NCBI GenBank assembly: GCA_043228905.1 | Contig: JBHGNT010000007.1 | Location: 18,104,001-18,168,000, forward strand | Reading direction: 5' to 3' | DNA: 64,000 bases | Origin: Azolla caroliniana | Taxonomy: Eukaryota > Plantae > Polypodiophyta | Shown: positions 4,831-60,706 of the stretch, in pieces | Layout: every line of letters starts with the position of its first letter | Numbering within the stretch: the first letter of the stretch is position 1 | Program-made: the position numbers and the translations under genes | Notes under the pieces: model-generated | Database searches by the model: none | The model's input: only the letters and a program-made list of their open reading frames with translations | Told to the model about the DNA's origin: nothing

Positions 4831-4884
4831 GGATTCAAACCTTGCACCTCCAAGTTAGGAGTCAATTGGTTTACCATTAAGCCA
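4831..4884 (-). promoter_or_regulatory. tRNA-like Pol III A-box/B-box module in the B LTR (copies near 11570-11625 and in S at 18838-18891)
   Basis: Minus strand TGGCTTAATGG (A-box) and GGTTTGAATCC (B-box), with starts 43 nt apart. Confidence 0.6.
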
Positions 4885-5295
4885 TGCTATTTAGTTAAAA
4901 TTATATTTCTATCATTGTACTTTTACATGTAAATTCTCATACATGAGAGCTAAAATGAGTGACATGGTTAGCATGCACCACATGTAATACTTAAGCGCCA
5001 AATGGCAAACATGCAATTTATGCATGTCTTGTACCCTCACATGCATCATATGCATGAGAGCATCTATAAAAGAGGGAAGGGGGAGGAAAAAAAAAACACG
5101 GTTTTTTTTATGAAAATTAAGAGGAAGAAATTCGTTATCAAATCAATCGTGTAATCTCAACTTCTCTCTTTCCCAATCTATCTTAAGTACTTTCTCGCCA
5201 AAGCTTGTATCGACTCTAAATCCTTCTGGTCCAGAACCCCGGCGGTTCCGCCTCACGATCTGCGCGTAGTGACGGATCTTCACGACATAATAAAG

Positions 5296-5313
5296 TGGTG
5301 AACCCGACGTGAA
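5296..5313 (+). promoter_or_regulatory. Primer-binding site complementary to the tRNA-Trp 3' end
   Basis: TGGTGAACCCGACGTGAA is the reverse complement of the plant tRNA-Trp(CCA) 3' end ...TTCACGTCGGGTTCACCA (from recall). The same site occurs in C, E (degenerate) and H. Confidence 0.85.
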
Positions 5314-5348
5314 AGAGGCGGTAGGAAGGATCAAGTCGAGATTAATAC

Positions 5349-7553
5349 TTGGAGATGGCGTCCTCAAGCAACCAAGCAGGAGAGCTTGAAAGGATGATGC
5401 TAATCGTCGAGCAAATGATGAGATCTCGGGACAACGACGCGAGCATGGAGAAGGCTGTCGATCGTGTTGTAGAGCTCGAGGGCCAATTCGATGGAAGGAA
5501 CGTTACGAAGTTCCTTGATGCATATAAGAGGGAGATGAATCAAAGGGACGTGTCCAAGGCACGTCAAATCGCAAGCTTCAAGAGAGTTGTCGCCAATAAC
5601 ATCCAAAGACGCGTCATCGAGCTTCAAGAAGGTAAGACAACATGGTCCGAGTTCGAGAAAACGATACTAGCGGAGTTCGTGACTGAAGACTCAATGAGGA
5701 TGACTCGACATGCCCTGATGAAGTGGATAGAGAAGAAGAATAAGAAGATGAGCGTCTCGAGGGTGTACAACGAATTCGACCAGATGTTTAGTCGTCTCCC
5801 CAATACGGACCAAGTGTTGCTTGAAGAGGACAAGACTTTGTACTTCTTGAAGACCGTGGACATAAAGGATAGACGGGAGTTAGGGACTCTTCTCGAAGAT
5901 GATACCCAAGCAAATGGGCTCGTAGCGGACTGGATCGTGGTGAAGCGAGCATGCAATAGGCTCGACAAGCATCGCCAATGGGTTGATGACACCGACATGA
6001 CGGGACCGACTACCACGGAGAAAGCAAGACCGCCGAAAGTAGCTGAGCCGCCGAGACAAAGTAACGTGGAAGAAAAGAAGATTGATGACGACATCATTGA
6101 AGAGCTAGCGAAGAAGTTCGAGAAGGTCACGCTAGCCAACATGAATCGTCAGGGCCCTAAAGGAAAAGAACCCTTTAGATGCGTGTGGTGCGATGGCATG
6201 GACCACATGAGAAGGGATTGTGCGAGCCTTCGAGAGGCGATTCGACAAAATATCGTATACATAGAGGACAACATGATCTGCTCAAGCGAGACTAGAAGAC
6301 CCCTACGGGTGAATTTCGGAAGAGGAGGAATGAAGAAATCTATGGAGGATGCCGATGCGACTCATGTGGATGCGATGCACTATGCTGTGTCGGCCGGAAT
6401 AAGAGTCGGGAAAGACAAGACTGAAGCTGCTAGAGCGGGAGCAAAGTTTTGGACTTCCGTTCTCGAATATGAGAAGAAGGGAAAAGTCACATCGAACGAG
6501 GTAGAGCTTGCGGACCGAAACGTGCAAAGCATAACCGGGTGGTCGGATCCGGTGGACGACAACACCATACTCGCAGAGGTGATGTGCGACAACCACGAGG
6601 TGTTCGTCGAAGAAAAGAGAAAGAGAATAGAAGAGCAAGGCCCATCTAAAAGACATGAAACAAGGAATGCGAAAAAGAAGGACAATGCGGAGACGAGTCG
6701 ACCTTTACAAACGGAGGAACGAGAATCAAGCCGAAAAGGGGAGCCGAGCATACGAGTTGAAGAAACGGTGCGGCCCGTGAAGGTTGGTGTCGAAGACCCC
6801 GCTCGGAGGACAAGGACTATACCTACCTATAAGCTAAGGTCGGACATAGAGCAGACGACGAACCTAAAGAAGATTCTCGAAGAACGAGTTCTTGATAGCC
6901 ACGTAACTTTGTCCTTGAGGGAATTGCTTGGCATTATGAAGAAGGAGTTCCACGACACGATCGTGGACCTTGTAAAGAGAAAGAGACAACAATCGAACGA
7001 GGAAGAAGAGAAGCCGCAAAAAGCAAAAACGAATGCCATAACGATGGCAAGAGACGAAATCGATGAAGATATGATGGACAGCCACTACACTCGACCTCAT
7101 TGGGCACGAGCGACAACAGAGACGCCGGTGAAGATCGGGGAGAAGAAAGAGACCGTCGTAGCCTTGATCGACCACGGCTCGGAGATCAACCTCATGTCAA
7201 CCGACTTCTACAAAAAGGGAAGATGGCCAATCAATACAAACCACGGATGGAAGATTCGCGCGGCAACAAAGTCTACGGAGGACTTGTACGGAGCTTGACC
7301 CAATGTCAAAGTCACGATCGGGGATGTGGAGATGGATCAACACTTCTTCGTACAAGAATCGGCGTCGCATCCTGTCATCCTAGGGCAACCTTATATCACA
7401 TCATCTCGGATGGAGACCAGAGTGTTCGATAATGGAGCAGCCTTCGCACGAATAAAGAGTCTTGACAACCAAAGATCGGTCCAATTCCTAACGGTGCGAG
7501 CCAATCATGAAAGGAATCGAGATAGTCTCGGAGGCGAATCCTCAGATTTTTAG
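5349..7553 (+). pseudogene. Gypsy B gag-protease ORF
   Basis: Gag with CCHC knuckle CVWCDGMDHMRRDC and aspartic protease VALIDHGSEINLM...HPVILGQPY. One in-frame TGA at 7296-7298. Ends GAT TTT TAG. Confidence 0.9.
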
Positions 7554-10500
7554 AGCGGACTATTGAAGCATGGGGCACAAATAGTTCGAGCAATCACAAG
7601 ACCCCACAAGAAAGAAGAGTGCGTGGATTGCAAGGAGAAGCAACATGTGTCACACCTAGTGGCGCATGTAAACTAGTACTACCCGACAAGAAGCACAAGC
7701 GCCGGATACAAGAATTCGAGAAGATGCTGAAAGAAGAGAATATAATAGAAGAAGGAGAGTTCGTGACTCATATTATGGAAGAAGCCTCATTTAACGACAC
7801 CATCGGCGAAATCGAGGACATCGTGGACTTGAGCTATCTTCACAACCAACGCGTGATTTCGGTTAACTCCGTCAACATGTACGCTATCATCGATGAATAC
7901 CGTCGTGGCATCTCGATGAAGGAAGCTGACATCAACACGAAATATAAAACGGTGGATAAGAAGATGAAGCCAGTTGCGGTTCCGCTACCGGAAGATAGCT
8001 GGCAAAAGATGAAGGAAGTCGCTAACGATCCAAGCTTAAGAGATCCGAAGAAGATAGGTCATGACTTCACCAAAGAGACGAAGGGGAAGCTACGAGTTGG
8101 AAAGGAGGATTTCCTTCTCCCTAAAGAGGAGCGAATGTTTCGCAATATGCTTGAGAGACATGGGAAGGCTTTCGCATTCTTCCCACGAGAAATCGGATGC
8201 GTCGACCCAAAGGTTATAAAGCCAATGGTGATCTTCACGGTGCCTCATGTGCCTTGGAATTTGAAACCGATACCGGTTCCAAGAGCACACCTTCCGAAGC
8301 TGATCGAGCTCTTAAAGGAGAAGGTGAGTATGGGAATTCTAGAACCGTCGAATGCTCCTTATTCCAATAGGTGGTTCACGGTGCCGAAGAAGAATGGATC
8401 ATTGCGATTCATCCAAGATCTTCAACCCGTCAACAAGGTGACAATTCAAAATGCCGGAATCGGTCCGAGCGTGGACGAATTTGCCGAAGCGTTTGCGGGC
8501 CGGTCCATCTACTCCATTGGCGATCTCTACTCCGGATATGACCAATTCCAATTGGCGATCGACAGTCGGGACATTACAACCATGAGGACTCCGATCGGGC
8601 TTGTGCGGATGTGTACCTTACCCCAAGGCGCAACGAACTCGGTGGCTCATATGGTGAATGCCATGAATAAAGTCTTGAAGGATTGCATTCCGGACATCAC
8701 GATGCCATTCTTGGATGATATTCTGATAAAAGGATGTTCGGATGAGGAGAAAGATGAATCGAAAGATAAGGAAGGATCATATGAAAGATTGCGAGAAGGT
8801 GCTTCAAAGGCTCGAAGATGCGAATTTGACATTTTCGGGAGAAAAATCCGCATTTGGGCAACCAGAGATCTTGGTGGTAGGTCACTTGTGTGGAGCATAC
8901 GGCCGGAAGCCCTCGCCATCCAAAGTGAACGCAATCCAAGACATGAAAGAAGAATGCGAAAACCAAACGGAGGTTCGAAGGTTCCTTGGAGTGTGCGCGT
9001 TTTATCATATATGGATTCCTCACTACGCTCATGTCGCCGAACCGTTATATGGACTACTAAAGAAAAGAATAAAGTTCAAATGGCGAGACGAGCACACAGA
9101 GGCGATGCGAAGATTAAAGAAACTGCTTCTTGAAGCTCCGGCACTAAGGAAGGCCGACTATGCCGAAGGGAAACCAATTTACGTGACCGTAGATACGAGC
9201 CCAACCGGAATCGGGTGGGTCATCAATCAAGAAGGTGAAGATAATGCGCGATATGCCGTCCGGTTCAGAGCAAAGGTTCTCAGCGAACGGCAACAAAGAT
9301 ATGCCCAAGTCAAGCGGGAACTTTGAGGTATTGTGTCGGCAGTGAAGATAGACAAAGATTACCTGATTGGGTCAGAAGTGATAATAGAGACAGATTGTCT
9401 CCCAATTCTCGGAATGGTCTCGGGATGTGCGACCCCAGATCTTGCTATGCTAAGGTGGATCGCCTACATCAAGTCTTTAAACCCAGAGATCCGTCACATC
9501 GCAGGGAAGAAGAACGCCATGGCTGACATGCTGTCGAGGGCAAGATTTTCAAATGGAAGTAACATGGTTTCGGAAGATGAAGATGTCGCCCTCAACTTCT
9601 TCAAGATGGCTCGATTGTCGGCGGAAGACCAGGACACGCAAACCCTCCACACCTTCAACGAGAACGAGTACGAAGGAGAATGGTTACTCATCGGTAGATT
9701 CCTAAGAACATTGACGATATATGCTTCGTTAACAAAGGAGGAGGCCCTACGAATCCGAAAGAAAGCTTACCGATACTTCTTGAAGGGAGGATTCCTTTGG
9801 CGACATCCAAAAAGAAGGACAGGAATACCACGTCGAGTGGTGGTAAAGAAAGAAGAGCAAGAGACGTTGATGACCGAATTCCACGAGAGTGCTTGGGCAG
9901 GTCATAGAGGAACATGGGCGACGTTCGAAAAATTGAAGGAGAAGTATTGGTGGCCAAGCATCTACAAAGATGTACTCCATTTCGTGTCCACATGTGAAAC
10001 TTGCCAAATATATTCAAATATACGTCATCGTGATGAGTTAAAGCCGACATACCCACTCACCATTCACTTCAAATGGATGGTGGATCTGGTCTCGATGCCA
10101 ATGGGAGTGGGACAAATGAAGTACTTGGCGCTCACAAGGGAAGACTTGACAAATCAAGTGGAAGGACGAGCCTTGACAAATAAGACGACTTCAGCCGTTT
10201 GTAAATTTTTACTTGAAGATGTTGTTTGCCGATATGGATGTGTAGGGAAGATAGTGGCCGACCGAGGGGAGTTGGACGCGCACGAAGCGACGGAGCTCTT
10301 CGAAAGACTAGGCGTGAAGCTCTCCCTCACGACTGCCTACAATCCGGAAGCAAATGGGAAGATCGAGCGAGGGCATGGACCTATCATTAAAGCCATCGTA
10401 CGGGCATGCAACGGTCGAGTTGGGAATTGGCCACGACTATTACCCTATGCCTTGTGGGCCAATAGAACGACACATAGCTCGGTGATAGGGTATATGCCGA

Positions 10501-11018
10501 CGGAGCTTATGTATGGACAAAAGCCGATTATGCCCATCGAAAGGACGATCGCCTCATGGGTAGCGATACCGTGGGAGAACGAGATGAGCCGAGAAGAGTT
10601 ATTAGCGGCGCGGATAAGGCAACTTGAAAGAAGACCTGAAGATTTAGAAAAAGCGCGAAAGATGATGAAGGCAGCCCGAGTAAAGAACAAAGTTCGGTTC
10701 GACAACACGCATCGACTTCGTCCCAAGAAGATTGAAGAAGGGGATTGGGTTTTGGTTTACGACAACAACCTTGACAATCAACATAGTACAACAAGGAAGT
10801 TCGCAAGAAGATGGTTCGGGCCGTATGTGGTGACAAGTGCCAACGATAATGCCACATACCACCTCGCGGAACTAGACGGATCAAGGTTGGCCGTACCCAT
10901 TGCGGGAAAAAGAGTAAAGTTTTTCAAGAAAAGACAAGACAAGGATCCTAACCTCGATTACCTCGACGATGCACATAATAGGCCGGATGAAAATGAAGAC
11001 ATGGAGGAATCTAATTGA
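7544..11018 (+). pseudogene. Gypsy B RT-RNaseH-integrase (-1 frame relative to gag)
   Basis: RT motifs DLYSGYDQF, LPQGATNS and FLDD; RNase H VDTSPTGIG; integrase HESAWAGH...CETCQ, DRGE, NGKIER and GPY. Frameshifting deletion near 8775 and TGA at 9324-9326. Confidence 0.92.
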
Positions 11019-12028
11019 TCATCGTAGCCGAAATCTCACTTCTTCTCTTCTTGGCACGTACCAGAGGACATGCGGTTTGGTGGGGGTGGATGTCGTGAAG
11101 ATTTTCGGCAATAGTGTGAAAATCCCATAAAACGTACGAAATCGAGTATGAATCACGTAATACAATAATTGTGAAGAAAACTTTTTTAATATCTAAGTAC
11201 AAAATGATGGAGGTTTCGAATGCACTTTATTACACGAGAAATGGACAACTAAATGTCAAGATATGAGGGTATAAAGTTTGTGAAAAGAAAAGAGAAAATT
11301 GTGAGATATCCCACATATGCACGACAAATACGGCTCTCATCATATATAAGGTGGAGCAAAAGATATTATCTTTGTGTCTATGTATGGAGCATAGAGAGTT
11401 CAAGGTAACTTGAACTAAGAGTGGAGGTGGCTAGCTACTCGTAAAGGGTTTTGGCCAACCAAAACCAGACCGGCGATGGAGTCGGGTATCCGGCGAACCG
11501 GCGTCCGGTGACTAGATAAAATAAATATATAAATATATATACATATTTACATATACAAGGAGGGCAAGCATGGATTCAAACCTTGCACCTCCAAGTTAAG
11601 AGTCAATTGGCTTACCATTAAGCCATGCTATTTAGTTGAAATTATATTTCTATCATTGTACTTTTACATGTAAATTCTCATACATGAGAGCTAAAATGAG
11701 TGACATGGTTAGCATGCACCACATGTAATACTTAAGCGCCAAATGGCAAACATGCAATTTATGCATGTCTTGTACCCTCACATGCATTATATGCATGAGA
11801 GCATCTATAAAAGAGGGAAGGGGGAGGAAAAAAAAAACACGGTTTTTTTTATGAAAATTAAGAGGAAGAAATTCGTTATCAAATCAATCGTGTAATCTCA
11901 ACTTCTCTCTTTCCCAATCTATCTTAAGTACTTTCTCGCCAAAGCTTGTATCGACTCTAAATCCTTCTGGTCCAGAACCCCGGCGGTTCCGCCTCACGAT
12001 CCGCGCGTAGTGACGGATCTTCATGACA

Positions 12029-13016
12029 GCGGTAAGGACCACGGTATACATCCAGAACCGGATCGGAGACAAAGTGTCGGTGCACGAGCTGTATTTCGGA
12101 ACGAAGCCGAACTTGCGACACTTGAGGGTGTTCGGTAGCATTGCGTATTTGCATGTACCGAAGGAGAAAAGGAGGAAGTTGGACGCAAAGGACGAGAAAT
12201 GCATCTTGGTCGGTTACTCGGACGAGCAGAAGGGTTATAAGTGCTATAACCCTCGTACCAAACAAGCGCGTGTCAGCCGCGACGTTGTGTTTGACGAGTC
12301 CGTGTCCTGGTACCAGCCCTCGACTCCAATCCGAGCTCTGACGATGAGGTCAGCGAGGCCGAGATGCCTCCGGATGAGCCCAAAATCGAGACCCGCGAAG
12401 AGAGTCCAATTTCACTCCGTTTAAGTGGACCGATTGGACGACTGAGTCGGTACGACCAGTCCGATGAAGAGCCGGCGAGTAGTGGAGACTCGGTCGTGCA
12501 TTCCCCGCGCAGGAAGCCGAGGAGACGGCTTACGCGCAAAGAGAAAGGGAAGAAGAAGGTGTCGGATTCTGGCACAAATAGGAACGAGTAAGACCGACAC
12601 GAGTCCGACTCCGAGGGAACCTGTGACGGGTCTTTAAAGGTGAAGACCGCGTCGACTGAGAAGGCCTCGACATCAGCTAATGTGAGATTACGCCGATCTA
12701 CCCGCCAGAAGAACCCTGTCTTGCGGTTCGGATACAACGAGTACATGGCGCATCATTATGCGTACATGACCCGTGTAGCGGAAGTGCGTGAGCCGGAGAG
12801 CTACGCAGAAGCGGCTAAAGACGCGAATTGGCGTGCCACGATGGAGGAAGAGATGCACGCATTGGCGGAGAACGAGACATGGGACCTGGTTGACGCACCA
12901 AAAGGGGTAAAACCGATCGGGTGTAGGTGGGTGTACAAGGTCAAGTACAACACCGATGGCTCGGTCAACCGGTACAAGGCTCGGCTAGTGGCAAAGGGCT
13001 ACGCACAGAAACACGG
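12029..13016 (+). pseudogene. Copia A integrase C-terminus, linker and start of RT
   Basis: HLRVFGSIAY, CILVGYSDEQKGYKCY, EPESYAEA, NETWDLV and YKARLVAKGY. Contains a frameshift and a stop. Confidence 0.9.
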
Positions 13017-13125
13017 TGTCGTAGTGTATTTTGTACACTACGTGAAAAACGTATATAGTATTAGATTCAATAAAAAATGAAGAAATAGAAGAAAATAGCA
13101 AAATAAATGGAACATGCATAGGGCA

Positions 13126-13179
13126 AGATTCGAACCTTGCACCTCCATGTTAATAATGTAATGTCTTACCATTACACTA
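13126..13179 (-). promoter_or_regulatory. tRNA-like Pol III A-box/B-box module in the C LTR (copy at 15914-15967)
   Basis: Minus strand TAGTGTAATGG and GGTTCGAATCT, 43 nt apart, with T-runs downstream. Confidence 0.65.
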
Positions 13180-13760
13180 GCATTTCATTAGTGTTAAAGC
13201 ATAGATGTCCCACATAGAAAGGTAAATTCACGCTAGGATAAACATTAGAAAAACGCATAACAAAAGAAAAAGCTACACATACACATCTAGCGTGCATGAT
13301 AAAAAACGCACAAGTTAGAAAAAAGCATGATCACTTTAGATAAAGCATATAGTCTATCTATAGGAAAAGCATGGGGTCTATAGTTAGAGAAAAAGCATGG
13401 ATTACTAAGACTTCCTCATCACTACATAAGGATGGGGAGCACAATGTAATTGTGTGTGAAATACTTGGAAACTGGATATGTTTCTAAAAAACACCAATTA
13501 ATAAACTATACTCGTGGGATTCACGAGGATTCTATATCATTCTCTTTTAACCGAAGTTTATATTCTTATATTCATATTGATTAATCTAATACAATACACT
13601 CGTGGGATTCACGAGTTTGCTATAACTCTTTCTTACAACATATTTATATTCTTATTAGCCTTAAAACTCTCTTCTTCCTAGTCCAAAACCTCGGCGGTTC
13701 CCACCCGACTCACGCAAACGATCCGGAGCCGAAAGGCACGACACAGTTGGTGAACCCGAC

Positions 13761-15803
13761 GTGAAGACGGGTGGCAAGGAGATGGAGAATCAACAAGAGG
13801 CGATGAACATGATGATGATAATGTTTGAGCGGATGCAACAAGAACAACGTGCGATGTCGGAGATGAAGGCGGCAGTAGAGCGGCTTCTGCGACGAAACGG
13901 GGAATTCAACGGTAAGGGTGTGTCACGCTACCTACGTGAATATAAGGCGGAGATGATGCAATATCGGATACCGGAAGGATTGCAAGTGATATCCTTTAGT
14001 CGGGTGGCCTCGGACGAACTACAAGAGAGAATCCACAAGATACAACAACAAAACTCGACATGGGAGTCCTTTGAAGAAGCTTTACGGGAGGCATATGACT
14101 ATGAGAGATGGACGGGACGATTTTGACGACAATTCGACGAATGGGTGGCGTCGGAGAAGACTCACCGAAGTGCAACGCAAGCGTTCCTAGAGTTCGAGCA
14201 TCGTTTTGCTCGACTCTCGGAGCGGGAACGAAGATTGGTGGGAGGAGATAAAGTCTTAATGTTCGTAAGATCGATCGATCGGAAAGAAAGGATGGACATT
14301 GGGATCGAACTCGAAGATGATGACGGTGCGAACGGTCTTACCGAGGATTGGGCCAAAGTCGAAAGGGTATGCCGAAGACATGATGAAAGGAAGCTGAGAA
14401 TCTCGTCAACAACGACATGGCCCATGAAGGATGGTCGATTGAGGAAAAACGATGAAGCCAATATGAAGGCCGAAATACAACATGATGGTACCACGGGAGA
14501 AAGAGTGGAACAAGCTACCCACTCGTCTTGTGAAAGAACGATGGCGAAGGATAAGGCCGATAATTCAAGTGTAGAAGGAAATTTCGGGATACAAGTGCCC
14601 GAGACATCGGGTCAAAAAGGGATAAGCATAATAGATGTTTGCATAATTGATGCAGATAAAGAGTGTGAAGCGGATGTGATTAAGGAGGTAGCCACAAAAG
14701 ACGAAATCGAATCGGAGGTGGCTATGGACGAATCAATGGCGGATTGCCATATCGAGACTTCCCCACCACTAATTCCAGAGACTCCGGCGGTTGCGATCGA
14801 AAGGCAACGTGAGACCGAAGAGACGGAAGGTGGCGGAGAGAAAACGAATGTCGAAGCCGACGAATACGATGAAGAGATAGCCGAGAAGAATGCTAAGGGT
14901 GAAACTACGAAAGAAGGTAATACCGAGGATTCATGCCAACAATATCTAGAGACTTCGGCGGTTGTGTCCGAGAACCAACGTGAGACCGGAGAGACGGGAG
15001 ATGGCGGCGAGGAAGGTAAAGTCGGAAGTCGGTTCGGATGGAAAATGATCCATCCGAAATTCCAATCTAAAAGAAAGTGCGACAATGCGGAGGTCGGGTC
15101 TACGACGGGAGAAGCGCGTAATACAGAGCACGCTCTACGGCGAATAAAGAAACGCATGTTATGGCGAATAAAGAAGCACGCGCTACGGCGAGAAAAGAAG
15201 CATGCATTACAACCACACGAGGACCGAACAACGAGCACATATCGGAGGACCTACGTGGCGAACAACGGAAAGAAGTGCTGAAAGTCGAACCGGACAAGGC
15301 AGGTGAAAACAAAGAAAAGAAAGCAAATCCGGACGAAAAGAAAAGAAAAGAAACCGACCCGAAAGAGCACTGAATCGGTAAAAACCGATCAACCGAGTCC
15401 GGATCGACCGAATACAAATCGGAAAGGAAGCCGAACTAAACGAAAGACGATCCGACGAGACCGAATCGGAAGTAAGCTAATCCGACTAAACCGAAAATCC
15501 GAAAAGAAGTCGAGATTGATGAAGAAAAGAAAGAGGGCAAGAAAAGATACTACCGCGGATGACAAGGACCAAGCGGGCCATGCAAAAAGCGAACGAAGAC
15601 TATGGTGGATCGGATGTCGACAATGGTTCGGGTGGAAAGAATGGATGTGCTCCAAATGGAGAGACAAAGTCAACATAACAAGAGAAGTCGAGGGTACTAC
15701 GAGCCGGAAACGAAACCAATCGGGTAGAGACCGGACGGAGGAGACTAACAAACACCAACAACTTCGGCACATACCGGAGGATGTGCGGGTTTGGAGGGGG
15801 TGA
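13761..15803 (+). pseudogene. Element C gag-like ORF with a long acidic then basic low-complexity tail
   Basis: ORFs 13761-14126, 14145-15281 and 15303-15803 share one frame, separated by two TGA codons. The N-terminus is homologous to B/H gag (GEFNGKGVSRYLREY; LEDDDGANGLTEDW). Confidence 0.8.
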
Positions 15804-16531
15804 GTGTCGTAGTGTATTTTGTACACTACGTGAAAAACGTATATAGTATTAGATTCAATAAAAAATGAAGAAATAGAAGAAAATAGCAAAATAAATGGAA
15901 CATGCATAGGGCAAGATTCAAACCTTGCACCTCCATGTTAATAATGTAATGTCTTACCATTACACTAGCATTTCATTAGTGTTAAAGCATAGATGTCCCA
16001 CATAGAAAGGTAAATTCACGCTAGGATAAACATTAGAAAAACGCATAACAAAAGAAAAAGCTACACATACACATCTAGCGTGCATGATAAAAAACGCACA
16101 AGTTAGAAAAAAGCATGATCACTTTAGATAAAGCATATAGTCTATCTATAGGAAAAGCATGGGGTCTATAGTTAGAGAAAAAGCATGGATTACTAAGACT
16201 TCCTCATCACTACATAAGGATGGGGAGCACAATGTAATTGTGTGTGAAATACTTGGAAACTGGATATGTTTCTAAAAAACACCAATTAATAAACTATACT
16301 CGTGGGATTCACGAGGATTCTATATCATTCTCTTTCAACCGAAGTTTATATTCTTATATTCATATTGATTAATCTAATACAATACACTCGTGGGATTCAC
16401 GAGTTTGCTATAACTCTTTCTTACAACATATTTATATTCTTATTAGCCTTAAAACTCTCTTCTTCCTAGTCCAAAACCTCGGCGGTTCCCACCCGACTCA
16501 CGCAAACGATCCGGAGCCGAAAGGCACGACA

Positions 16532-18399
16532 ACGGCATCGACTACGATGACACTTTTGCGCCGGTTGCGAAAATGACGACCGTCCGTGTTTTGCTCGCAA
16601 TAGCCGCGGCCAAAGGGTGGCACCTACATCAGATGGATGTAAAGAATGCGTTCCTGCAAGGTGACCTTGAGGAACAGGTGCACATGGTACAGCCCCCCGG
16701 ATTTCATTCTGGAACGAACTCCTTGGCAGTATGCCGACTGAAGAAGTCCCTTTACGGACTGAAGCAAGCCCCGCGTGCCTGGAACGCGAAGATCACGCAA
16801 CAACTGCGTCAGATGGGCTTCGTCACATCAAAATCGAACTCTTCCCTGTTCATCCAGAAAGGTCGACTCGGACCAGTTAGTATTTTACTATATGTTGATG
16901 ACTTGGTCATCACCGGTGCCGACCTACGTCAAATCGACCACGTGAAGCTCCAGTTTGCGGCATCGTTCGACATGAAGGATCTGGGGGACCTTCATTACTT
17001 CCTCAGGATCGAAGTGATCCGTACCCCCGAAGGCATATTGATCAGCCAACGTCATTACGTGCTGAGTATGCTCTTCAAATTCGGGATGGCCGACTGTAAG
17101 TCTGTCTCGACTCCTCTGGACAGAACCGTCAAGCTTCGTCCCGATACGGGAACGATATTCGACCCGACGAGGTTCCGACAAATTGTCGGAAGCCTCATAT
17201 ACTTGACCATCACCCGACCCGACCTCAGTTATCCGGTCAGAGTGATCAGTCAGTTCATGGCGCAACCTACTGAGGAGCACCTTCAGTGTGCGCAACGCAT
17301 ACTTCGGTATGTCAACGGCACTAAGGACCGGGGACTGCTATATCGAACCGGTGCAGCCGCACGGTTAGTCGGCTGCACCGATGCTGATTGGGTTGGCAAC
17401 GCCGCCGATCGCCGATCCACGTCCGGATACGCGTTCTCCCTCGGGAGTGCCGCGATCGCGTGGAGCAGTAAGAAGCAGCCGATAGTTGCACTGTCGAGCA
17501 CCGAAGCTGAGTACCGAGGAGCGGCTGTCGCGACATGCGAAGCCATATGGTTTAAGCGGCTACTTAAGGACCTGCAAGAGGAGGTGTCAGATCCGACGAC
17601 GATCAACTACGACAACCTCAGCAACATCCAGCTCGCGAAAAACCCCGTTTTCCACACACAGACCAAGCACATTGAGGTGCACTACCATTTCGTCCGTGAG
17701 CGTATCCTTTCCGGTGAAGTCGAACTTCAGTACGTGCCAACGGATCGGGAGACTGCCGACATCTTCACTAAGCCTCTTGGTCTGGACAAGTTGCGGCAAT
17801 TCTCCGGTGCGCTCAGATTGCGTCACCTCGACGTGCCAAACTTGAGGGGGAGAACAGTCCCGAACAACCAAGCAAAGCAACAGGAAAGGATCGGAGGCCG
17901 CGACACCGAGTCAGTTTACTCGGCTGTTGACTCGGTTGTCGAGTTCGACTTCGGATCGGCTGAAGAAGCCGAGGGCGGACCCGCGGGAAAGTCGGAAAGC
18001 GGACAGAAGGGGAGCAGCCGAAGGAGAGAGACGAAGCCAACCACGAATTGGGAAGATAACGCCATCGAGGGCGAGAAGACCGGAAACGAGTTGGAGACAG
18101 CCAACTCGGACGAGAGCGAATACCGATCGGAGGTAGCCGAGTCGGTTCGGATGTTTGATTCAGATACGCTGAATCAACCGAGGCCCAAGCGGAAGAAAAG
18201 GCAGCAGGAGAAGCGTCAACACCGCAACAGCAGAAGAGCTGATAAGGGCCGCATGAGCAGACAAGCCGACCGGAAGGGTCGAAGCGCTCGGAGTCGAACA
18301 GGTCGAGGAGCGCGAGCGAGGCGTGAAGCCAGGAGGAATCGGAGTTGTGAGCCCGAGGATCCCGACGAGCCTCGAGTTGAGCTTGAGGGGGAGTGTTGA
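16532..18399 (+). CDS. Copia A reverse transcriptase-RNase H with a C-terminal extension of about 180 aa (orphaned by upstream insertions)
   Basis: QMDVKNAFL, LYGLKQAPRAW, LYVDDL, DADWVG, SSTEAEY and ADIFTKPL. The open frame continues through the PPT into the LTR. Confidence 0.9.
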
Positions 18400-19527
18400 G
18401 AGACAAGCTCAACATCGGCCGGATCGGCTGAAGAAGCCGAGGACTGGATCTGTTGGGACCGATCGGTTAGGCCGAGTGCGTAAACCGGGAGGCCGTTAGG
18501 AAAGATATTCCGTGAGGAATATATTTGGGAGTTAGTGTAGGAGCTCTTAAAGAGCATTGAAGTACGGTCAGTACTTCAGTCAGTCCTTCGAGGACTTGTA
18601 TAAAAGTGTTCATGGAACACACGTATGTATAGAGTAGTGAATCGAGATTTATTGTTGTTGAATATAGTTCTTCTGTTCTCTCTCACTCTCTCTGTCTCTC
18701 CCGCGTATACTGCGTAAGCTCAAGCTCTCCATTAAACCTGAGTTTTCTTCCTTCCATTCCGTCTTCATACCTGCTTCCGCACGCTACTTTCTACATAAAG
18801 CTATAATGATAAAAATATAATCCCTAAAGAAATGGCTTGGCTTAATGGTAAGACTATTGCTTCTTATCTTGGAGATGCAAAGTTCAAGTCTTGCTTACAT
18901 CTTTTTCTTTTATGCACAAAATACTATTAGGCTTTTGGACCAAATATCTTTAAGACACCATGTACCGCGATCAGCTGACCCAACCGATCCATCTGATTTG
19001 CATCTGTTTGGTCCGGCCTAGTCCGCCTCCCGAGTCGCTTGCCGATAACCAGCCGGTCGCTGCTTGTTAGTCACCGGTTGCCGCCGGTTTTGGTTGGCCA
19101 AAACTATTTACACATAGCTAGGCCACAAAACTATTACAAGTAGCTAGGCCACACCCCCTCATCCAATTAGCTTAGTTCAAGTCACCTTGAACTCTCTATG
19201 CTCCACACATAAACATAAAGGTAATAGCTTTTGCTCTACCTTATATATGGTAAGATCCTTATTTGCCCTATCTATGTGGGATATCTCACAGTTTTATCTT
19301 TCCCTTTTCCTTTGCAAACTTCCTACCCTCATAACTTGAGACTTACATGTTTGTTTCTTATGTAGTAAAGTGCATTTGAAAGCTCTTGAAGACCTCCATC
19401 TCTTTTTGTTCTAAGATATTAAACTTATTTAAAATATTATTTTCACTATTATTGTTTTATATGATTCATACTCGATTTCGTATATTCCTCACAAGTTTCA
19501 CACTATTTGCCGAAAAACTTCATGACA

Positions 19528-28129: not shown

Positions 28130-28244
28130 TCTTTCTCATGCTCCTTGGTTCAGGGCCCCCGCGGTCCCGCCTCATTTCACACACGAGAGCGTAACAACAC
28201 AACATAATCGGGTGAACCCAACATGAAAGAAGGCGGCAAAGGAG

Positions 28245-47048: not shown

Positions 47049-48200
47049 ATGGCCACTATTAGCGCTGAAGAATATCAATCTGTTTTCTCGGAATTTCAAT
47101 GCTTGAAGGAGAAGTTCCATGCTTTGGAACAAGAAAACCAACGGTTGCTGGGGGATCTTTAGCAAATCTCCTTAGAAAAGCAGCAAACGTAACAACAACA
47201 TGGGGAACTTGCGTTACGCGTGCAACAACTCGAAGCAACCATCGTAGCGATGCAACAACAAGGGCCCGGAACACAAGGGATTCATAAAGAACCCAAGATT
47301 GGCCTTCCCACGAAGTTCGATGGAACGCGATCGCAAGTTAGAGGGTTCCTTAACCAGGTACGATTAGTTATTCAAATGCATCCTTCCCGATATCCCACCG
47401 ATGCATCACGAGTGGGTTTAGTAGGCACTTTGTTAAGTGGCTCAGCGTTGTCATGGTTTGCTCCACTATTAGAAAAGGAATATCCGTTACTCAACAATTT
47501 TGAAGAGTTTCTAGGTGAGTTTAAAGCATGTCTCAGAGATACTGACAGCATCAGGACCGCAATCAACAAAATCCGGCGATTACGCCAAGGTGACCGTCCA
47601 GCCTCCGCATACGCTGCAGATTTTCGCCTACTCGCTGCCGATATCCCTTAGGATGATCAAGCGTTGATGGAGCAATTCCGTTATGGTTTACGCAACGACG
47701 TCAAGGATTTACTCTTGACCTTCCCCGAAGAGCCAAAGTCCTTAACAGAAGCAATCAGTCGCGCGGTGAGATGTGACAACCGCCTCTTTGAGCGACGTTC
47801 GGAACGACAGCTACAGATGCCGAGGGCAAGATCAGAGCCCACCTACGCCTCAGTGGTAGCAAGACCTTTCCCGAGGGAGTCATATAATGCGCCTCCAGCG
47901 AATACTCCGACTCCGATGGAGATTGACACTACACGTCGTCGAGGGCCATTATCCGAAGAAGAAAAGCAGCGACGCCGTACAAATCGACTATGTCTTTACT
48001 GTGGTGGACCAGGACATATCGCAATAAATTGCCCCCATAGGCCAAGAAGACAGGTAGACAAAATAGTCGCTAGTTCTAATTGTACTAAACCCGAGCCTAT
48101 TTTAGTAGGGATATCTGATAGTCCTAATAGTACTAATATCCCAGATCTAGCAAACAAATTTGATGTCCTTAGTCAATTAGAAGAAGAGTTAAACGACTAA
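47049..48200 (+). pseudogene. Chromovirus I gag
   Basis: PTKFDGTRS, ALSWF, PMEID and CLYCGGPGHIAINC. Contains stops relative to the intact paralogue at 60929-62098. Confidence 0.92.
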
Positions 48201-51200
48201 GTCCAGCCAAAATAGGAGCCGTTTGGTTGGACAGCCCTAGATCTGTGCAGCCCATTAGTGGTTCCATTCCCTCTAAGCAAGTTAGTGATGTGTTCGTAGC
48301 CCAAGTAATAGTTAGTACTAAAAGTACCCCTCCAGTACATGTCCTAGCACTCCTAGATTCCGGAGCTAACTCTTGCTTTATGGATAAGAAATTTGCTCAA
48401 GCTCATAAGATATCCCTAAGAAAACTCCAGTGTCCAGCCTCTGTAGTAGTCATTGATGGACGTCCCATTGCTTCCAGAAATATCATAGAAGAGTCAGAGC
48501 CCATTAATATTGTCCTAGATAACTTAGCATGTGTAGTATCATTTAATATTATTAGTATCCCAAAACATCCTATAGTTTTAGGATTACCGTGGTTCGAGTT
48601 ACATAACCCAAACATAGATTGGAGAACAAGAGAAATCCAGTGTCGACAAACCCAAGGGTCAATTCAGAAGATGGCAACCATTTCGCTATGTCAGTTGCGT
48701 AAAGAAGGGCGCAAGGAGGAAATGTTCCTCTTTGCAATATCAGTAAACCCCTCCACCACCACTAAAGAAGAATCCACCGTTCAACTTCCCGAGAAGTATC
48801 GTCATTACGCCAATGTGTTCGATAAAGTACAAGCCAACACACTTCCTCATCATCGACCGTACGATTGCCCCATCGATTTACAACCGGGAAAAGAGCCGCC
48901 ATGGGGACCGATCTACAATTTGTCACCAACCGAGCTGGAAGTCCTTCGTGCCTATATAGAGGAGAATTTGGAAAATGGTTTCATTCGGCATTCGAAATCT
49001 CCAGCCGGCGCGCCCATTTTCTTTGTCAAGAAAAAAGATGGATCGCTTCGTCTCGTTGTAGATTACCGTGGCTTGAATAAGGTTACAATCAAGAATAGGT
49101 ATGCTCTTCCCCTTATCTCAAGTCTTTTAGAACAGATCAATGGTGCCAGGTTCTTCACGAAGATCGACTTATGGGGAGCATATAACCTCGTACGGATCCG
49201 ACCAGGAGAGGAATGGAAGATCGCGTTTCGCACCAGATATGGGCACTTCGAGTATACGATCATGCCGTTCGGCCTCACTAATGCGCCGGCAGTCTTCCAG
49301 CACATGGCTAATGATATATTCCGAGATCTATTGGATGATTGTTTGATCATCTATTTGGATGATCTACTGGTTTATTCAAAGACCCAAGAAGAACATGATT
49401 CTCATGTACTATTAGTACTAAAACGACTTCGAGAACATGGTCTGTATGCAAAGCTAGAAAAATGTAGTTTTGGGTGCAACCAAGTGGAATTTCTCGGCTA
49501 CATCATTTCGTCAGAAGGCATCTCCATGGACCCAGCTAAGGTCAAAACGGTGGTGGAATGGCAGACTCCGTGTTTGGTGCGGGATGTGCAATGCTTCTTA
49601 GGCTTTGCCAATTTTTACCAGAAGTTCATACAAGATTACTCAAAGATCGTTCTACCTCTCACACAACTTACCAGGAAGGGACAACCGTTCATCTAGTCTG
49701 AAGAAACGGACATGGCTTTCGAGAGTCTTAAAAAGGCATTTACATCGGCTCCAATTCTAGCTCATGTCGATCCGGAAAAACCATTCATTATCGAAGCTGA
49801 CGCATCGGATTTTGCATTGGGGAGCATTTTGTCACAACAGGGGAATGATGAGAAGCTACATCCTGTGGCTTTTCACTCACGCAAGTTTGACGCCGCCGAA
49901 ATCAACTACGAAATTCATGATAAGGAGCTATTGGCAATAGTGGATTCTTTTATGCAATGGAGGCATTTTCTGGAGGGATCCTCTCATCCAGTCACCGTAT
50001 TTAGTGACCACAAGAATCTTGCCTACTTTCAGGATGCTCGTGTGTTGAATCAACGTCAAGCTCGGTGGGCCCACTTCCTCACGCGTTTCGACTTCAAAAT
50101 TACATATCGTCCGGGGAGGCACCAAGGGAAGGCAGATGCATTATCACGGCGTTTGTATCTAGCACCCCGTCCCGGCGAGCCAGCTTTCGATAACCAAAAA
50201 CAAGTCATCTTGGGACCGGCACGACTACAAGCAACACAGATCTTTGACATGCCTATGGATTCCCGCGTTATCGATACCATACGTGAAGATTTGAAGACAG
50301 ATGCGTTCGCCCAAGCTATACTAGCACAAATTGATCCCTCTCGAGCGTCGTGTTCACAGTCGCAACCACCAGGTACGGACTATCGGCAATTCAAATACCA
50401 TGATGGATTACTCTTCTTTAAAGAACTTTTGTATGTTCCTAATGGTTCTTGCCGCCTTCGAGTAGTACAAAACTGTCATGACACATATGCAGCTGGGCAT
50501 TTTGGTAGTACTAAAACATTACATTTAGTACAACGAACATTCTGGTGGCCCTGTATGCGACAATTTGTCGAGGATTTTGTTCGGACTTGTGATACATGTT
50601 GTAGAGCGAAAATGCCAAGGCATCATCCATATGGTTTATTAGAACCATTACCAATTCCAAGCAAGTCATGGCAATCCATTGCTCTAGACTTCATCACAGA
50701 TCTTCCAGTATCTAAGGGGTTCAATGCGATTCTAAAGGTGGTCAATCGATATACGAAGATGGCTCATTTCTTGCCATGTACTAAGGAGATCTCCAGTGAA
50801 GACACTGCCGAAATTGTCATGCGTGAAGTATGTCGGCATCATGGACTTCCCGATAGTATCATCAGCGACCGTGGACCCCAGTTCGTGTCAAAATTCTGGA
50901 AGCACCTTTTTAACATGCTCAAGGTCACTTGTAACCTCTCCTTCGGCTACCACCCACAAACCGATGGCCAAGCTGAACGAACAAATCAAACGTTGGAGCA
51001 GTATCTGTGGTGCTTTCTCAGCTATCATCAAGATGACTGGACAAATATTCTCCACTTCGCCGAATTTGCCTATAACAACTCTATCCACGCATCCACTAAA
51101 GTTACGTCATTTTATGCTTATACGGGATGTCACCCCCGGTGGAGTGTACTTGAAACCCCAGAGGTGTCCACAAATCCGTGCGCGGAGGATCGTTTGGAGC

Positions 51201-51786
51201 AGTTACGCAAGATACAAGCGGATTTATCTACTCATCTCCAGGAAGCTCAACAAACACACAAGGTCTACGCGGATCGTCATCGACTTCCATCCAATTTTTT
51301 AATATTGGAGATCGGGTGTGACTGCTACGACGACACATCAAGACTACTCGTCCATGTGAGAAGTTAGATTATCGGCGATTAGGTCCTTTCCATATTATTG
51401 GACAGATTAATGATGTCGCTTTTCGTCTCGATCTACCTCCTCAACTTCGGATACATCCAGTGTTTCATAGTTCTCTCCTCGAACCCTACCACGAGAGCAC
51501 CATCCCAGGACATCTTATCCAACCTCCACCCCCGATCGAGCTTGAAGATGGGCCGGAGTATGAGGTTGCCGCCATCCTTGATTCCAAGATTGTTCACAAC
51601 AAGCTCTACTATCTAGTCGATTGGCTAGGCTATAGCCCCAGCAAACTTACTTGGGAACTGATCGAGAATGTGACCAATGCTCGTGCTCTTCTTGAAGACT
51701 TCCATCCTCAATATCCACACAAACTAGGTCCTCAATCCAAGACGACTCGTGACACTCGTCGTTTTAAAGGGGGGATAGTGTCATGA
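48188..51786 (+). pseudogene. Chromovirus I pol: PR-RT-RH-INT-chromodomain
   Basis: LLDSGA, MPFGLTNAPA, YLDD, EADASDF, ISDRGPQF and HPQTDGQAER. Chromodomain EYEVAAILDSK...YLVDWLGY...LTWE. TAG at 49694-49696 and a frameshift near 51300. Confidence 0.93.
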
Positions 51787-51793
51787 TATGGCA

Positions 51794-51848
51794 AGACTCG
51801 AACCCATGACCTTAGGTTATATGGGTCGAGCTCTTGACCATTAGATCA
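51794..51848 (-). promoter_or_regulatory. tRNA-like A-box/B-box at the extreme 5' end of the chromovirus LTRs (also 46553-46607 and 60387-60440)
   Basis: Minus strand TGATCTAATGG ... GGTTCGAGTCT (44 nt apart). In J, TAACCTAATGG ... GGTTCGAGTCT (43 nt apart). Confidence 0.65.
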
Positions 51849-53434
51849 TCTATTATAATACGTAGGATATTATTTTCATTTACATTTTATTATAGGAAAT
51901 TAGTGTATATTCCAGATTTCTCTGGAACATTCTAGAAGCTTCAGGATTAATCCTGAAAACACTATAAAAGAGGGCACTAGGCATTATATTGAACCAAATT
52001 GGTTCAACGCCAGTCTTAAGCCTTTTAGCCACCATTGTATATTCTCTTCATATAATACATATCTTTCTTATCATCACTCTCTCTCTCTCTCTCTCGATCT
52101 CTCTCTTTCTCTCTGTCTCGCTCACTTCTTCCTTCTCTCGAAGAAGTTCCAAACCTCTCATAGTACTAATCCTTCGTTCAGTACTAATTCCTTCTCTGTC
52201 TCAGTACTGTTCCTGACAACACCCTTCTTTCTCTCTCTCTTTCCTTTCTTAAATTGATCTATCTTTGTTATCCTTATCATATGCTTACTTTAGAACATAA
52301 CTCTAACCATTGGTGTCATAGCCATGTTTCTAATGTTTCTTTTGTTGATTGTTTTCTTTCTTGTTGGATGGCGATCGATCGATGTACGATTGAGCTTGAT
52401 CCAGATAGCTATCAACAAAGGAATTTCGGTAAATCTTTCTGATTTTTTTTCCTATTCTTTCTTCTCCCAATCTATTGATTCAATGATGTAATTTTTTTAT
52501 TGATTCAATGATGTTGTTGTGGTAATGGTTGTATAAAATGTATACATATATGTATGAGATCAATACCTCATTTGACATATATTTGATATGTGATTCGTGT
52601 CGTATGTGTACGAGGTTCATACCTCAATTTTATATTACGTTCACATACATATGTTATGTATGCGTATGAGGTGAATACCTCGATTTCTATGTAAATGATA
52701 TGTGATTGGCGTCATATATCATAAGAGGTCAATACCTCAATTGCATATTACGTTCACCCTTATTTTAGGATGTTTCGTGTGCGTAGAGGCTATATGCCTT
52801 GATAACATGTCTCAATTACATCATTTGTTGGTTATTTTATGTTACAATTTTTTTTTGGGTATACGTATGTGTGGTCACGTGTATACGTATTTGATCGTAT
52901 ACATGTGATAAACATACATATGTGTATATTAGTTATTACATGATTTTGTATATCGAACGTTGTCCTTTTTGGGGAAAGGATCTTGGTGGCCGTCGTCACA
53001 TTTTTGTGAGAATGGCGTTGTCACCATCCTTTTTTCAACAATTTTTTTGTTGTCATCCCCGTTGGTCACTTCGATTTCGCTACGCGTTATAACGAAAGGA
53101 TCATAGCCACAATGATGTTGAGAGCGTAGGGCTTCACCCACTTCATGTGAGGTCGCTCCTATGACACACATATCCAACATCCCTCCCTCGTTACATGGAT
53201 ACGATGCCACCATGAGATCATCATTACGGAATGCATTCGTAATGATGTAACCATGTGATGGGCCACGTGGGCCAACTACGAAAAGTGGGCTCATTTGGCT
53301 TGACCATTAGGTTGCACTTTGGGTTATGTCATCGTAATGATGAGCCTTGAGGTTGGATAATGTACCAACATAGTTTTCGTGTTAACGAGGAGGAAATAAG
53401 GTTTCTAGACATATATGTTTTCTTTTTAAAAACA

Positions 53435-56991: not shown

Positions 56992-57071
56992 AAACATATA
57001 TGGGCAAATGCCTTTGCATATCTCTTATACGCATAAAATATTGAACATTCACCACGAGCAACCTATTTGAT

Positions 57072-58385: not shown

Positions 58386-58389
58386 ATCC

Positions 58390-58492
58390 TTTTTGGTGGT
58401 CAAAGATCTCTGGTTGCTGGTACAGTTTGGAGATGCAAAACTAGACAAAATAGATGCGCTGACCTGGGAGGTGATGCACATGAAAACAACAG
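58390..58492 (+). pseudogene. Tork-like Copia gag fragment
   Basis: LVVKDLWLLVQFGDAKLDKIDALTWEVMHMKTT, homologous to D/F/G gag. Confidence 0.75.
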
Positions 58493-59525
58493 TGTTAAGA
58501 ATCAAACTCAACTTCCCGTGAGTGGGAACACACTCTAGGATACTCAAGTGTGTGAACACCCCACCTCCTTGTATAGTAACTAGTGTGTCATAGAAGTTAA
58601 TGTCCTATGACACATATTATTTAAGTAGTTAAGACACAAGCTCTTTCCCAAGAGGCGGTACTAGTGAAAGAACTTAGAGAGAAGGTGATTACATAAGCAC
58701 CTTCTCCCTCTCTTTGTAAACAAGTCATTCTTGCTTCCTTTGTAATACAGTTTTTTGATTTTCTGTAATTGTGAGCTCTCTCTCTCTCTCTCTCTTTACA
58801 CACACACACACACATACAGAATTCTTCCACTGCACAAAATCCAGAACCGACTGATCGTTGTAGCAGTCGTGTGCATAGTTCACATCAAGAAGAAGAAGCA
58901 GAAGCTCAACATGAACACACTGATGGGAAGTGCTCTTCCTATCAAAAAGCTCAACAGAAACAACTTTGCATCTTGGGAGTACAAGATGCACCAATACCTT
59001 GTCGGCCAAGGCTATTGGAGTTATGTCGAAGGGGCAAACGAGAATCAACCCAACCCAACACATGTCAACTACCCAGCTTGGGAGCAAGCGGCGAGTTGTG
59101 TGTTGTATTGCCTTGCATCATGCGTCCATGATCACATGCTCGGCTACATCCGAGAGGCCAAAATGCCAAAGGAGGCGTGGGGGAACCTCAAGTATATTTT
59201 CGCGGCCAGCACGATCGCAAGAACGCTTCAACTCCGTCAAGAGTTGAACGATATACAATAGAGGGACATGTCAATCGGCCATTATACCGTGAAGATCAAG
59301 GAGTTGTGTGATGCCCTCGGGTCGATCAATGTTAGCATTGACGACAATGAAATGGTGCAGATTTTTCTCAGAGGCTTTGCACCTTGGTTCGGGACCATTC
59401 GTTCGGTTGTCCTCGCGAGGGAGAATCCTCTCTCCTTCGATCTCCAGTCGATTCGAACAAGAAGCAATGCGCAAGAAGGACAAATGCTCTATTCAAACTT
59501 CGATGGAGGAAGAGGTCAACTCGAT
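58493..59525 (+). mobile_element. Copia M: truncated relative of A (partial LTR plus gag)
   Basis: LTR-like start TGTTAAGAATCAAACTCAAC. gag KLNRNNFASWEYKMHQYLVGQGYWSYVEG (58911-59520). No PBS seen. Confidence 0.75.
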
Positions 59526-59711
59526 CATTTGAATCTCCCACAAAACTAGTGAAGAAGAAACCTTTGACAACCTCCTCTCCATCCAATTGCATGTTATTTT
59601 CCTCTTTGGATCTCACGTGCAACAATATATTTGTAACAACATTCTTGCTGAGATATGACAAATATTTCGATGCAGGGATTGCATATATGCCACCTATCTT
59701 GAATACATAAA

Positions 59712-60138
59712 CATCATGGCTTGACCTAGACTTGACCCCAAGACCTTGTAATACATAATCAAGAACACAACCTTTAAGATAGCCTATGATCATATGAAAT
59801 GATAAAAACTACGTTTTGTAATATATTGATTATTGTAAATGCTTTGGATCATTCTAGAATATCCTAGAACATCTTAGAATATTCTAGGTGTAAGACATTC
59901 TAGAACAATATAGAAATCTCTAGGATATTCTATAGAAACCTATAAATATAGACATACAATTATTCTCAAACCAATTCGAATCAACACCAGTCTTTAGCTC
60001 TCATTACATATCTTGTATCCATTCTTTTCTCTTTCTATCTTAATACACCCATTCCTCTCTTATCATTTCATCCCTTTTCTCCTCGTGTCATCTTATATCC
60101 TTCTTCCATCACTCTATCTTTTATTCTTGGTTCTGACA
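59712..60138 (+). mobile_element. Degenerate solo LTR resembling the chromovirus I/J LTRs
   Basis: CATTCTAGAA repeats, TATAAATA, AACACCAGTCTT and a terminal CTGACA in the same order as in the I/J LTRs. 5' end uncertain, no TSD. Confidence 0.45.
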
Positions 60139-60666
60139 CCACCTATCATAGCATTGCCACGTCTAAATGCAAAGGACGAGAGGAATATATGTCTCAACAA
60201 TACATCAGCTCCAATCGGATAATCTTAGTTGGTTTTGAACACTAGCACAATTCTACAAACCTCTCTTTTTTATTTGTGGATATCCTCGTGTGTTTCTTTT
60301 AAACATGTGCCACCACAACATACCAATGTTGTAACCCTCCATTATTTACTAACATACCAATGTTTAGACCTATATCTGTCATAACTAGACTCGAACCCAT
60401 AACCTTTTGTTACACGGGTCGAGACTTTACCATTAGGTTATGAATTGTAATTTGAAGGATATTATTTTCATTTAGGTTTTATTGGGAAATTGATGTATAT
60501 TCCAGATTTCTCTGGAACATTCTAGAAACTTCAGGAGTATTCCTGAAGACACTATAAAATGAGGCGCAAGGCATTAGTTCGAACCAAATCGGTTCAACGC
60601 CAGTCTTAAGCCTTCTAACTACTGTTGTATATCTTCCGTCATATAATACATATATCTTTCGCATCA

Positions 60667-60706
<40 letters not shown>

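Follow-up and report, generated by a model that had tools for sequence, protein, structure and literature searches.

Long terminal repeats (LTRs) from two Gypsy lineages in Azolla caroliniana carry, antisense to the element, a module with the A and B boxes of an RNA polymerase (Pol) III promoter; judged from its sequence, it is tRNA-derived. The copies described here lie in a 64,000-nucleotide (nt) stretch of contig JBHGNT010000007.1 (positions 18,104,001 to 18,168,000; hereafter the window), which is a nest of LTR retrotransposons. The module covers tRNA positions 8 to ~62 and has no acceptor stem. Its boxes are probably under selection as a DNA site of TFIIIC type, as their box-by-box conservation across diverged families would fit. 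The overall explanation that we favour, tentatively and at a little under an even chance, is that a decayed tRNA-gene head acts as a putative TFIIIC site keeping chromatin open by the Pol II promoter of the LTR. The window holds the following copies:

4831..4884, minus strand: A/B module in the 5' LTR of the DUF4100 Gypsy element B; spacing 43, with T in the B box at tRNA position 56 (T56)
11572..11625, minus strand: A/B module in the 3' LTR of element B; T56 as in the 5' LTR
13126..13179, minus strand: A/B module in the 5' LTR of the gag-only element C; both boxes perfect; weak Rfam tRNA match, positions 8-63
15914..15967, minus strand: A/B module in the 3' LTR of element C
18838..18891, plus strand: A/B module in the B-related LTR S, whose element is on the minus strand; T-run 11 nt past the B box
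46553..46607, minus strand: A/B module in the 5' LTR of chromovirus I; 15 nt from the LTR tip, spacing 44
51794..51848, minus strand: A/B module in the 3' LTR of chromovirus I; 15 nt from the tip
59728..59781, minus strand: degenerate A/B module in the chromovirus solo LTR K; 33 nt from the tip, absent from an earlier note on this DNA
60387..60440, minus strand: A/B module in the 5' LTR of chromovirus J; 10 nt from the tip

The motifs used in the scan were A- and B-box consensus sequences, and positions are given in tRNA numbering. All six pairs claimed by the earlier note were recovered, in place and in letters, and three further copies (B 3' LTR, C 3' LTR and K) were added. The antisense orientation that it reported extends to all nine: the B, C, I and J modules are on the minus strand, and the S module is on the plus strand with its LTR on the minus strand. 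The B box quoted as perfect for I is so in the 3' LTR, but the 5' LTR copy has T at tRNA position 56. The module was also said to lie upstream of the LTR TATA, and it does so by 112-180 nt in B, I, J and K, where a TATA-like word was located; C is ambiguous. The A and B boxes stand 43-44 nt apart in most copies, the tRNA-like spacing of a type 2 Pol III promoter. The modules of B and C are set 110-510 nt inside the LTR, away from the tip. Pairs with at most one mismatch at spacing 30-70 number 7 in the window, where 100 local dinucleotide shuffles, the control proposed with the earlier note, average 0.06 (maximum 1), although these 7 are copies from five families and hence not independent; at spacing 41-46 and up to two mismatches, 8 are observed against 0.18 in shuffles. 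The module is not general to Gypsy LTRs: the DUF4100 elements D and E have no pair at up to four mismatches, and neither has any of the four Copia LTRs tested in the window.

Relatives of I indicate that the module is a property of a lineage. They were picked by protein, through an alignment of the integrase SH3-chromodomain end, and not by motif, and the best 80 of 590 confirmed metagenome stretches were used. Because the 3' LTR starts directly past the SH3-chromodomain end, presence of the module can be scored with no selection on the motif itself. In I's branch, 18/18 loci with enough 3' LTR have a complete module, antisense and 15-39 nt from the LTR tip, and proteins of the module-bearing families are 47-89% identical to those of I. 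A quick tree of 80 rows (I and 79 loci, with L065 left out as too short) places I and 17 of the 18 on one branch, with support by the Shimodaira-Hasegawa-like approximate likelihood-ratio test (SH-aLRT) of 94, just below the tool's threshold of 95. The branch also holds L010 and L017, which are too short, and L057, which has the B-box half only; no module-less row with a scorable LTR falls inside it. Outside the branch, a pair at up to three mismatches occurs in 0/46 chromovirus loci that offer an LTR start and at least 120 nt, a count that leaves out 12 loci in which no LTR start was found and 5 with too little sequence. A profile built from the modules scored nothing above 9.9 bits in reversed controls and matched, at a reversed LTR-like tip, a module on which it had not been trained (L013:143-195, E 0.012). 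It also picked up tRNA-like units outside chromovirus LTRs, in L076/L077 and L039. A second match is weak (L006:3787-3838, E 0.65), and a match at L005:1007-1049, inside pol, was set aside as chance.

Within the module, conservation follows the boxes. The earlier note held that the boxes are better conserved than the sequence between them, and among eight sub-branch representatives this is borne out: pairwise identity is 0.61 in the A box and 0.73 in the B box, values that are partly circular, and 0.38 in the anticodon arm. The comparison used metagenome loci and DNA reads in place of genome-wide LTR copies. In the same eight, positions 20-26 reach 0.59, the sequence just upstream 0.33 and that downstream 0.34, with composition alone giving ~0.28; an AT-rich tract further upstream reaches 0.54 against 0.38 expected. 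Positions 44-48, which were not part of the motif scan and whose value is thus not circular, reach 0.95, and no other five adjacent non-box columns exceed 0.56. The B-box word GTTCRA is kept in 7/7 high-depth contigs (depth 28-308 by contig name).

Copies of the B family were gathered as contigs from four DNA runs at an 80% cut-off, a place being counted as variable where an alternative reaches at least 15%. The 21 variable places are unevenly spread: 0/11 in the B box, 0/10 in 11583-11592, 7/22 from there to the A box, 2/11 in the A box, 12/37 just upstream and 0/38 further upstream. Both frequent A-box variants are purine-for-purine and remain within the consensus. Diverged B relatives stop matching at 11579 and at 11621/11625, which are the outer box edges, and the LTRs of B and C align significantly at the module only (48 nt, E 1.6e-8).

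None of this makes the module a tRNA gene. ARAGORN reports no tRNA in the window, nor in 60 of 80 loci scanned. Rfam finds no tRNA across the whole window at E up to 1. Applied to 121-nt stretches, Rfam gives C a sub-threshold tRNA match over model positions 8-63 (13.4 bits, E 2.3), and nothing for I. Nor does it give a match for the extra module of L013. When a cloverleaf is imposed on 20 modules, covariation does not exceed that of shuffles (72 of 500 reach its score); pairing is 40% in the acceptor and 44% in the anticodon stem, and 68% and 71% in the D and T stems, which overlap the boxes. A functional tRNA gene is therefore rejected on the decayed acceptor and anticodon stems, the lack of covariation and the lack of an ARAGORN match.

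The elements that carry the modules are listed here with their signals (PR, protease; RT, reverse transcriptase; RH, RNase H; INT, integrase; ORF, an open reading frame; PBS, primer-binding site; TSD, target-site duplication):

4318..12028, plus strand: element B, 7.7 kb, DUF4100-RT-INT; LTRs 4318-5287 and 11091-12028 (929 matches, 9 mismatches)
~5295 and 5064, plus strand: signals of element B, a tRNA-type PBS and a TATA-like word, respectively
13017..16531, plus strand: element C, 3.5 kb, gag-like ORF only; LTRs 13017-13743 and 15805-16531 (2 mismatches)
743..19527, minus strand: B-related LTR S, broken by nested inserts into pieces at ~743-876, 1641-1839 and 18796-19527
46538..52218, plus strand: chromovirus I, 5.7 kb; LTRs 46538-46974 and 51779-52218 (6 mismatches); TSD ACACC
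Within I, plus strand: coding order gag-PR-RT-RH-INT-SH3-chromodomain (Pfam Chromo)
51962, plus strand: TATA-like word of chromovirus I, 114 nt inward of the A box
46754..46765 with 46977-46988, plus strand: self-priming complement in I, 12 nt in the LTR against 12 nt just past the 5' LTR
59695..60138, plus strand: chromovirus solo LTR K, TSD CCACC, an older member of the I/J group
60377..64000, plus strand: chromovirus J, 5' LTR 60377-60839, continuing past the window; 88% identical to I
60586-60597 with 60842-60853, plus strand: self-priming complement in J, arranged as in I

B, D and E belong to Gypsy, have DUF4100 and lack a chromodomain, and C is a gag-only element of the same kind; one and the same tRNA-type PBS is present in B, C and E. 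The best named relatives of B are in Riccia, then in ferns. I and J have no tRNA PBS and are predicted to prime themselves in the manner of Tf1. The nearest relatives of their proteins are metagenome proteins, then fungal and vertebrate ones, and the viral contig collection yielded no relative of either lineage. C is very young (2 LTR mismatches) and non-autonomous. D (28134-38717) seems to be without most of RT, RNase H and integrase, with ~1 kb of non-coding sequence there instead, and its PBS is apparently unlike that of B, C and E. The latter three have apparent 4-bp target duplications (4314-4317/12029-12032, 13013-13016/16532-16535 and 30212-30215/37207-37210) at RCGG-like sites (ACGG, ACGG and GCGG/GCGA), which suggests a sequence preference. 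Arrays of a 54-nt tandem repeat at 95-442 and 23506-23745 are associated with Copia-like elements.

Some observations on the metagenome loci stand apart. First, tRNA-like units also occur outside chromovirus LTRs, at L076/L077:7147-7194, L039:11474-11528 and L006:291-326 and 380-445; these are candidates for free SINE-like (short interspersed nuclear element) donors or for other LTR families. Second, L030, which adjoins the module branch, has at 1072-1200 a B-box-like word 48 nt from the tip, an A-box-like word ~54 nt away and a small hairpin between them; it has no pair at up to three mismatches and no Rfam match, and possibly represents a different capture. A reading of it as a long-arm tRNA is unsupported. 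Third, in a module-less chromovirus branch (L026-L029, L036, L039 and L040) the LTR begins with ~30-nt tandem repeats instead.

The favoured explanation would run as follows. A tRNA-derived, SINE-like head was presumably captured antisense into U3, the unique 3' region of the LTR, and its promoter boxes would have been retained while the stems decayed. TFIIIC would then bind the boxes as DNA, and TFIIIB with the TATA-binding protein (TBP) would load on the inward AT-rich tract, at 110-180 nt from the Pol II TATA on its upstream side, so that chromatin by the Pol II promoter would be open and silencing spreading from the flank would be checked. Because each round copies U3 into both LTRs, every new insertion would bring along a site of its own at its outer edge, and the outward facing of the module would spare the Pol II promoter any Pol III traffic. 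Its outward place, with the flank on one side and the Pol II TATA on the other, suggests that it serves as a barrier or opens the promoter in elements with a heterochromatin-reading chromodomain; a moss chromovirus has been proposed to target heterochromatin (PMC7466625). Whether the element gains from such a barrier or opening is a more tentative matter than selection on the site itself, and we would place that benefit somewhat short of an even chance. It is doubtful that the fullest version holds, in which autonomous, heterochromatin-aiming elements carry their own TFIIIC-bound barrier at each LTR's outer edge, acquired independently by two Gypsy lineages.

Several results weigh against this explanation. 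The sister elements D and E do without the module, as do most other chromovirus branches, and many of the outside loci are near-copies from other sample sets, so that host and branch are confounded. Positions 44-48 beat the B box in conservation, which a promoter-only model leaves unexplained, and position 61 has T in place of C in 5/20 rows and in 2/7 high-depth contigs. The B-family stretch 11663-11700 is as invariant as the boxes; the variation in that family may fit box-centred constraint and is not decisive, the invariant flank being equal. C56 is important for the B box, and the T56 form is weak. Both B LTRs have T56, no other letter reaches 15% there in 4/4 runs, and the contigs with the consensus C56 are mostly loose ends from other families; the very abundant B family has thus spread with a non-consensus, presumably weak B box. 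The sequence upstream of the modules is AT-rich but has no TATA or CAA at a fixed plant-type distance, where the upstream signals of plant Pol III genes are described as a TATA at about -35 and a CAA at -7 to -3 (PMC3082873). Finally, methylated, heterochromatic tRNA genes of Arabidopsis are reported to be silenced (PMC7544208), so plant tRNA genes are not obviously self-protecting.

Four other explanations were weighed. It is unlikely that the module is a TFIIIC/TFIIIB site serving integration or nuclear position, one that tethers cDNA ends or copies to Pol III clusters or acts as a landing pad for Pol III-targeting elements, helping to build nests. Its place in chromoviruses, 10-39 nt from the integrase-bound LTR tip, would suit such a role, and several retrotransposons are described as targeting TFIIIB/TFIIIC-bound genes (PMC5006619). 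The Copia element A (1840-18795, TSD TAAAG, 18796-18800) moreover interrupts S at a point 38-42 nt upstream of its A box, in the putative TFIIIB zone. This is, however, the single insertion upstream of a module in the window, and it lies within an AT-rich tract; being an insertion target brings no clear benefit to the carrier element, and the B and C modules are 110-510 nt inside the LTR, not at the tip.

Also improbable is an active antisense Pol III gene, whose RNA would extend into the flank from the 5' LTR, and from the 3' LTR into the end of pol that holds the chromodomain, tuning silencing or copy number. The tRNA spacing and the AT-rich upstream tract (AT fraction 0.74-0.93 in the 16 chromovirus rows with 41-42 nt) speak for it, as does a run of four T residues past the B box in B (51 nt), S (11 nt) and C (23 nt). 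Against it, only 8/21 chromovirus modules have such a run before the LTR tip, 6 have none within 300 nt, and there is neither a conserved fold nor a fixed TATA or CAA. The proposal therefore appears weak for the chromoviruses and stronger for B, S and C on terminator content. Two polyA RNA runs of a related species, sampled at 12-13% of each, gave 43 and 49 reads on 50900-52300, mostly less than 90% alike and with no pile-up of starts or ends; a short Pol III RNA would escape such libraries, so they are evidence neither way.

A role in the sense RNA, in which the module pairs with host tRNAs at their D and T arms, serving as a second PBS part or as an aid to strand transfer, is quite improbable. 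It would account for the antisense orientation, the place in U3 and the conserved D arm, variable loop and T arm; B and C do have a tRNA-type PBS, and in Ty3 a 3' PBS part in U3 is described as pairing with the T and D arms (PMC5371799). However, I and J have the 12-nt self-priming complement instead of a tRNA PBS, as is predicted for most Tcn1 elements (PMC6317226), and E shares the PBS of B and C yet has no module. G-to-A changes, which G-U pairing would tolerate, are absent at G18, G19, G45 and G53 (0 in 80 cells), and non-box columns with a G majority often change in this way.

The least probable of the four, and a very improbable one, is that the module is neutral, left over from a SINE or tRNA pseudogene and copied along in ancestral LTRs: the tRNA-like units outside chromovirus LTRs (L076/L077, L039), the degenerate B box of B, the lack of a module in D and E and the description of many Repbase LTRs as containing tRNA-like parts (PMC10886601) would fit it, but the boxes and positions 44-48 are spared (0.61-0.95) across families 47-89% identical to I while the anticodon arm and flanks stand at 0.34-0.38, and the CpG-bearing core of the B box is kept in 7/7 high-depth contigs. 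With the fold lost, self-priming predicted and no fixed terminator in the chromoviruses, a TFIIIC site at the DNA level would be the best reading.

The number of captures bears on how the module arose. Between the lineages the modules match only at generic tRNA positions (anticodon arm 0.29 against 0.27 expected), as separate captures would produce. Convergence between two Gypsy lineages is possible. The non-consensus T62 is common to both lineages (14/20 rows; opposite G52 in 12/20), and the tail CTTG occurs in 8/20; these shared features would fit one donor. The gag of C is no nearer to B than to D or E (31-43%), so gain and loss are both possible within that lineage. At the modules neither a tail nor a TSD, as signs of SINE insertion, was seen, and homology stops at the box edges. 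A host primer tRNA gene for comparison of isotypes was not found in the viral or genome contig collections, nor by ARAGORN in 60/80 loci.

Pol III promoters in LTRs are already known from Cassandra and Helenus; the present case differs as an antisense, branch-wide module in autonomous elements. Helenus (TRIMp3, among the TRIMs, or terminal-repeat retrotransposons in miniature) is the closest likeness, as both of its LTRs contain tRNA-derived sequence that is conserved at the A and B boxes and is not a functional tRNA (PMC10886601). Its origin is proposed to be a SINE insertion into an LTR, and Selaginella is the only plant case given in that account (PMC10886601). Helenus is, however, non-autonomous and 311-1263 bp long, whereas the carriers here include gag-pol elements of 5.7-7.7 kb; Helenus is thought to make its own genomic RNA by Pol III, whereas here the unit faces outward with the Pol II TATA 112-180 nt inward (PMC10886601 leaves the orientation in Helenus unstated). 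That work, Kojima 2024, treats TRIMs only and expects autonomous partners to depend on Pol II (PMC10886601). Membership in Helenus can be dismissed, since B and I encode RT and INT, C has a gag-like ORF, and all nine window copies and the 18 loci are antisense. Cassandra likewise has a selected internal Pol III promoter in plant LTRs, but this is derived from 5S RNA genes, resides in a non-autonomous TRIM and drives the element's own transcript (PMC10853983, PMC10886601).

The proposed function also has parallels. tRNA genes (tDNAs), extra-TFIIIC and chromosome-organizing-clamp (ETC/COC) sites and B2 SINEs are described as TFIIIC-binding or tRNA-derived boundaries, and B2 copies are mobile; those in the accounts consulted are host or SINE loci of yeasts and mouse, with none within an autonomous LTR, and B2 is linked to CTCF (PMC4370569, PMC8136502). 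Our literature search found no plant demonstration of such a boundary. The bipartite PBS of Ty3, itself a Gypsy element, resembles the module as a U3 sequence antisense to the tRNA D and T arms; in Ty3 the pairing partner is the element's own primer tRNA (PMC5371799), whereas self-priming is predicted for I and J and the module covers tRNA positions 8-62 with the spacing of a gene. By chromodomain, predicted self-priming and fungal and vertebrate relatives, I, J and K fit the Tcn1 clade, and B to E, by Riccia and fern relatives and the lack of a chromodomain, fit the non-chromovirus Phygy lineage of seed-free plants; both names are tentative and rest on these traits (PMC6317226, PMC2864245, PMC7466625). 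The portions of these Tcn1 and Phygy papers that were searched mention no tRNA-like or Pol III element in such LTRs (PMC6317226, PMC2864245, PMC7466625). A full-text literature search found no antisense, lineage-wide module in autonomous Gypsy LTRs of these lineages; Repbase entries and the Helenus supplements, which lay outside its scope, could list such LTRs. The novelty suggested by the earlier note becomes narrower in that Helenus LTRs are described as having conserved A and B boxes (PMC10886601).

These LTRs extend the capture of Pol III promoters from miniature elements such as Cassandra and Helenus to autonomous ones, in which the promoter presumably serves some purpose besides producing RNA of the element itself. 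In annotation, such LTRs can inflate counts of tRNA pseudogenes or SINEs. It is still debated by what means elements inserted in heterochromatin are transcribed, and a short, conserved and mutable site of Pol III type at the LTR edge makes one answer directly testable. If the favoured explanation is true, it would give a first handle on the boundary function of TFIIIC in plants; on its fullest version, a mobile boundary would come with every insertion, and host chromosomes would have their mosaic of silent and open chromatin shaped by thousands of these sites.

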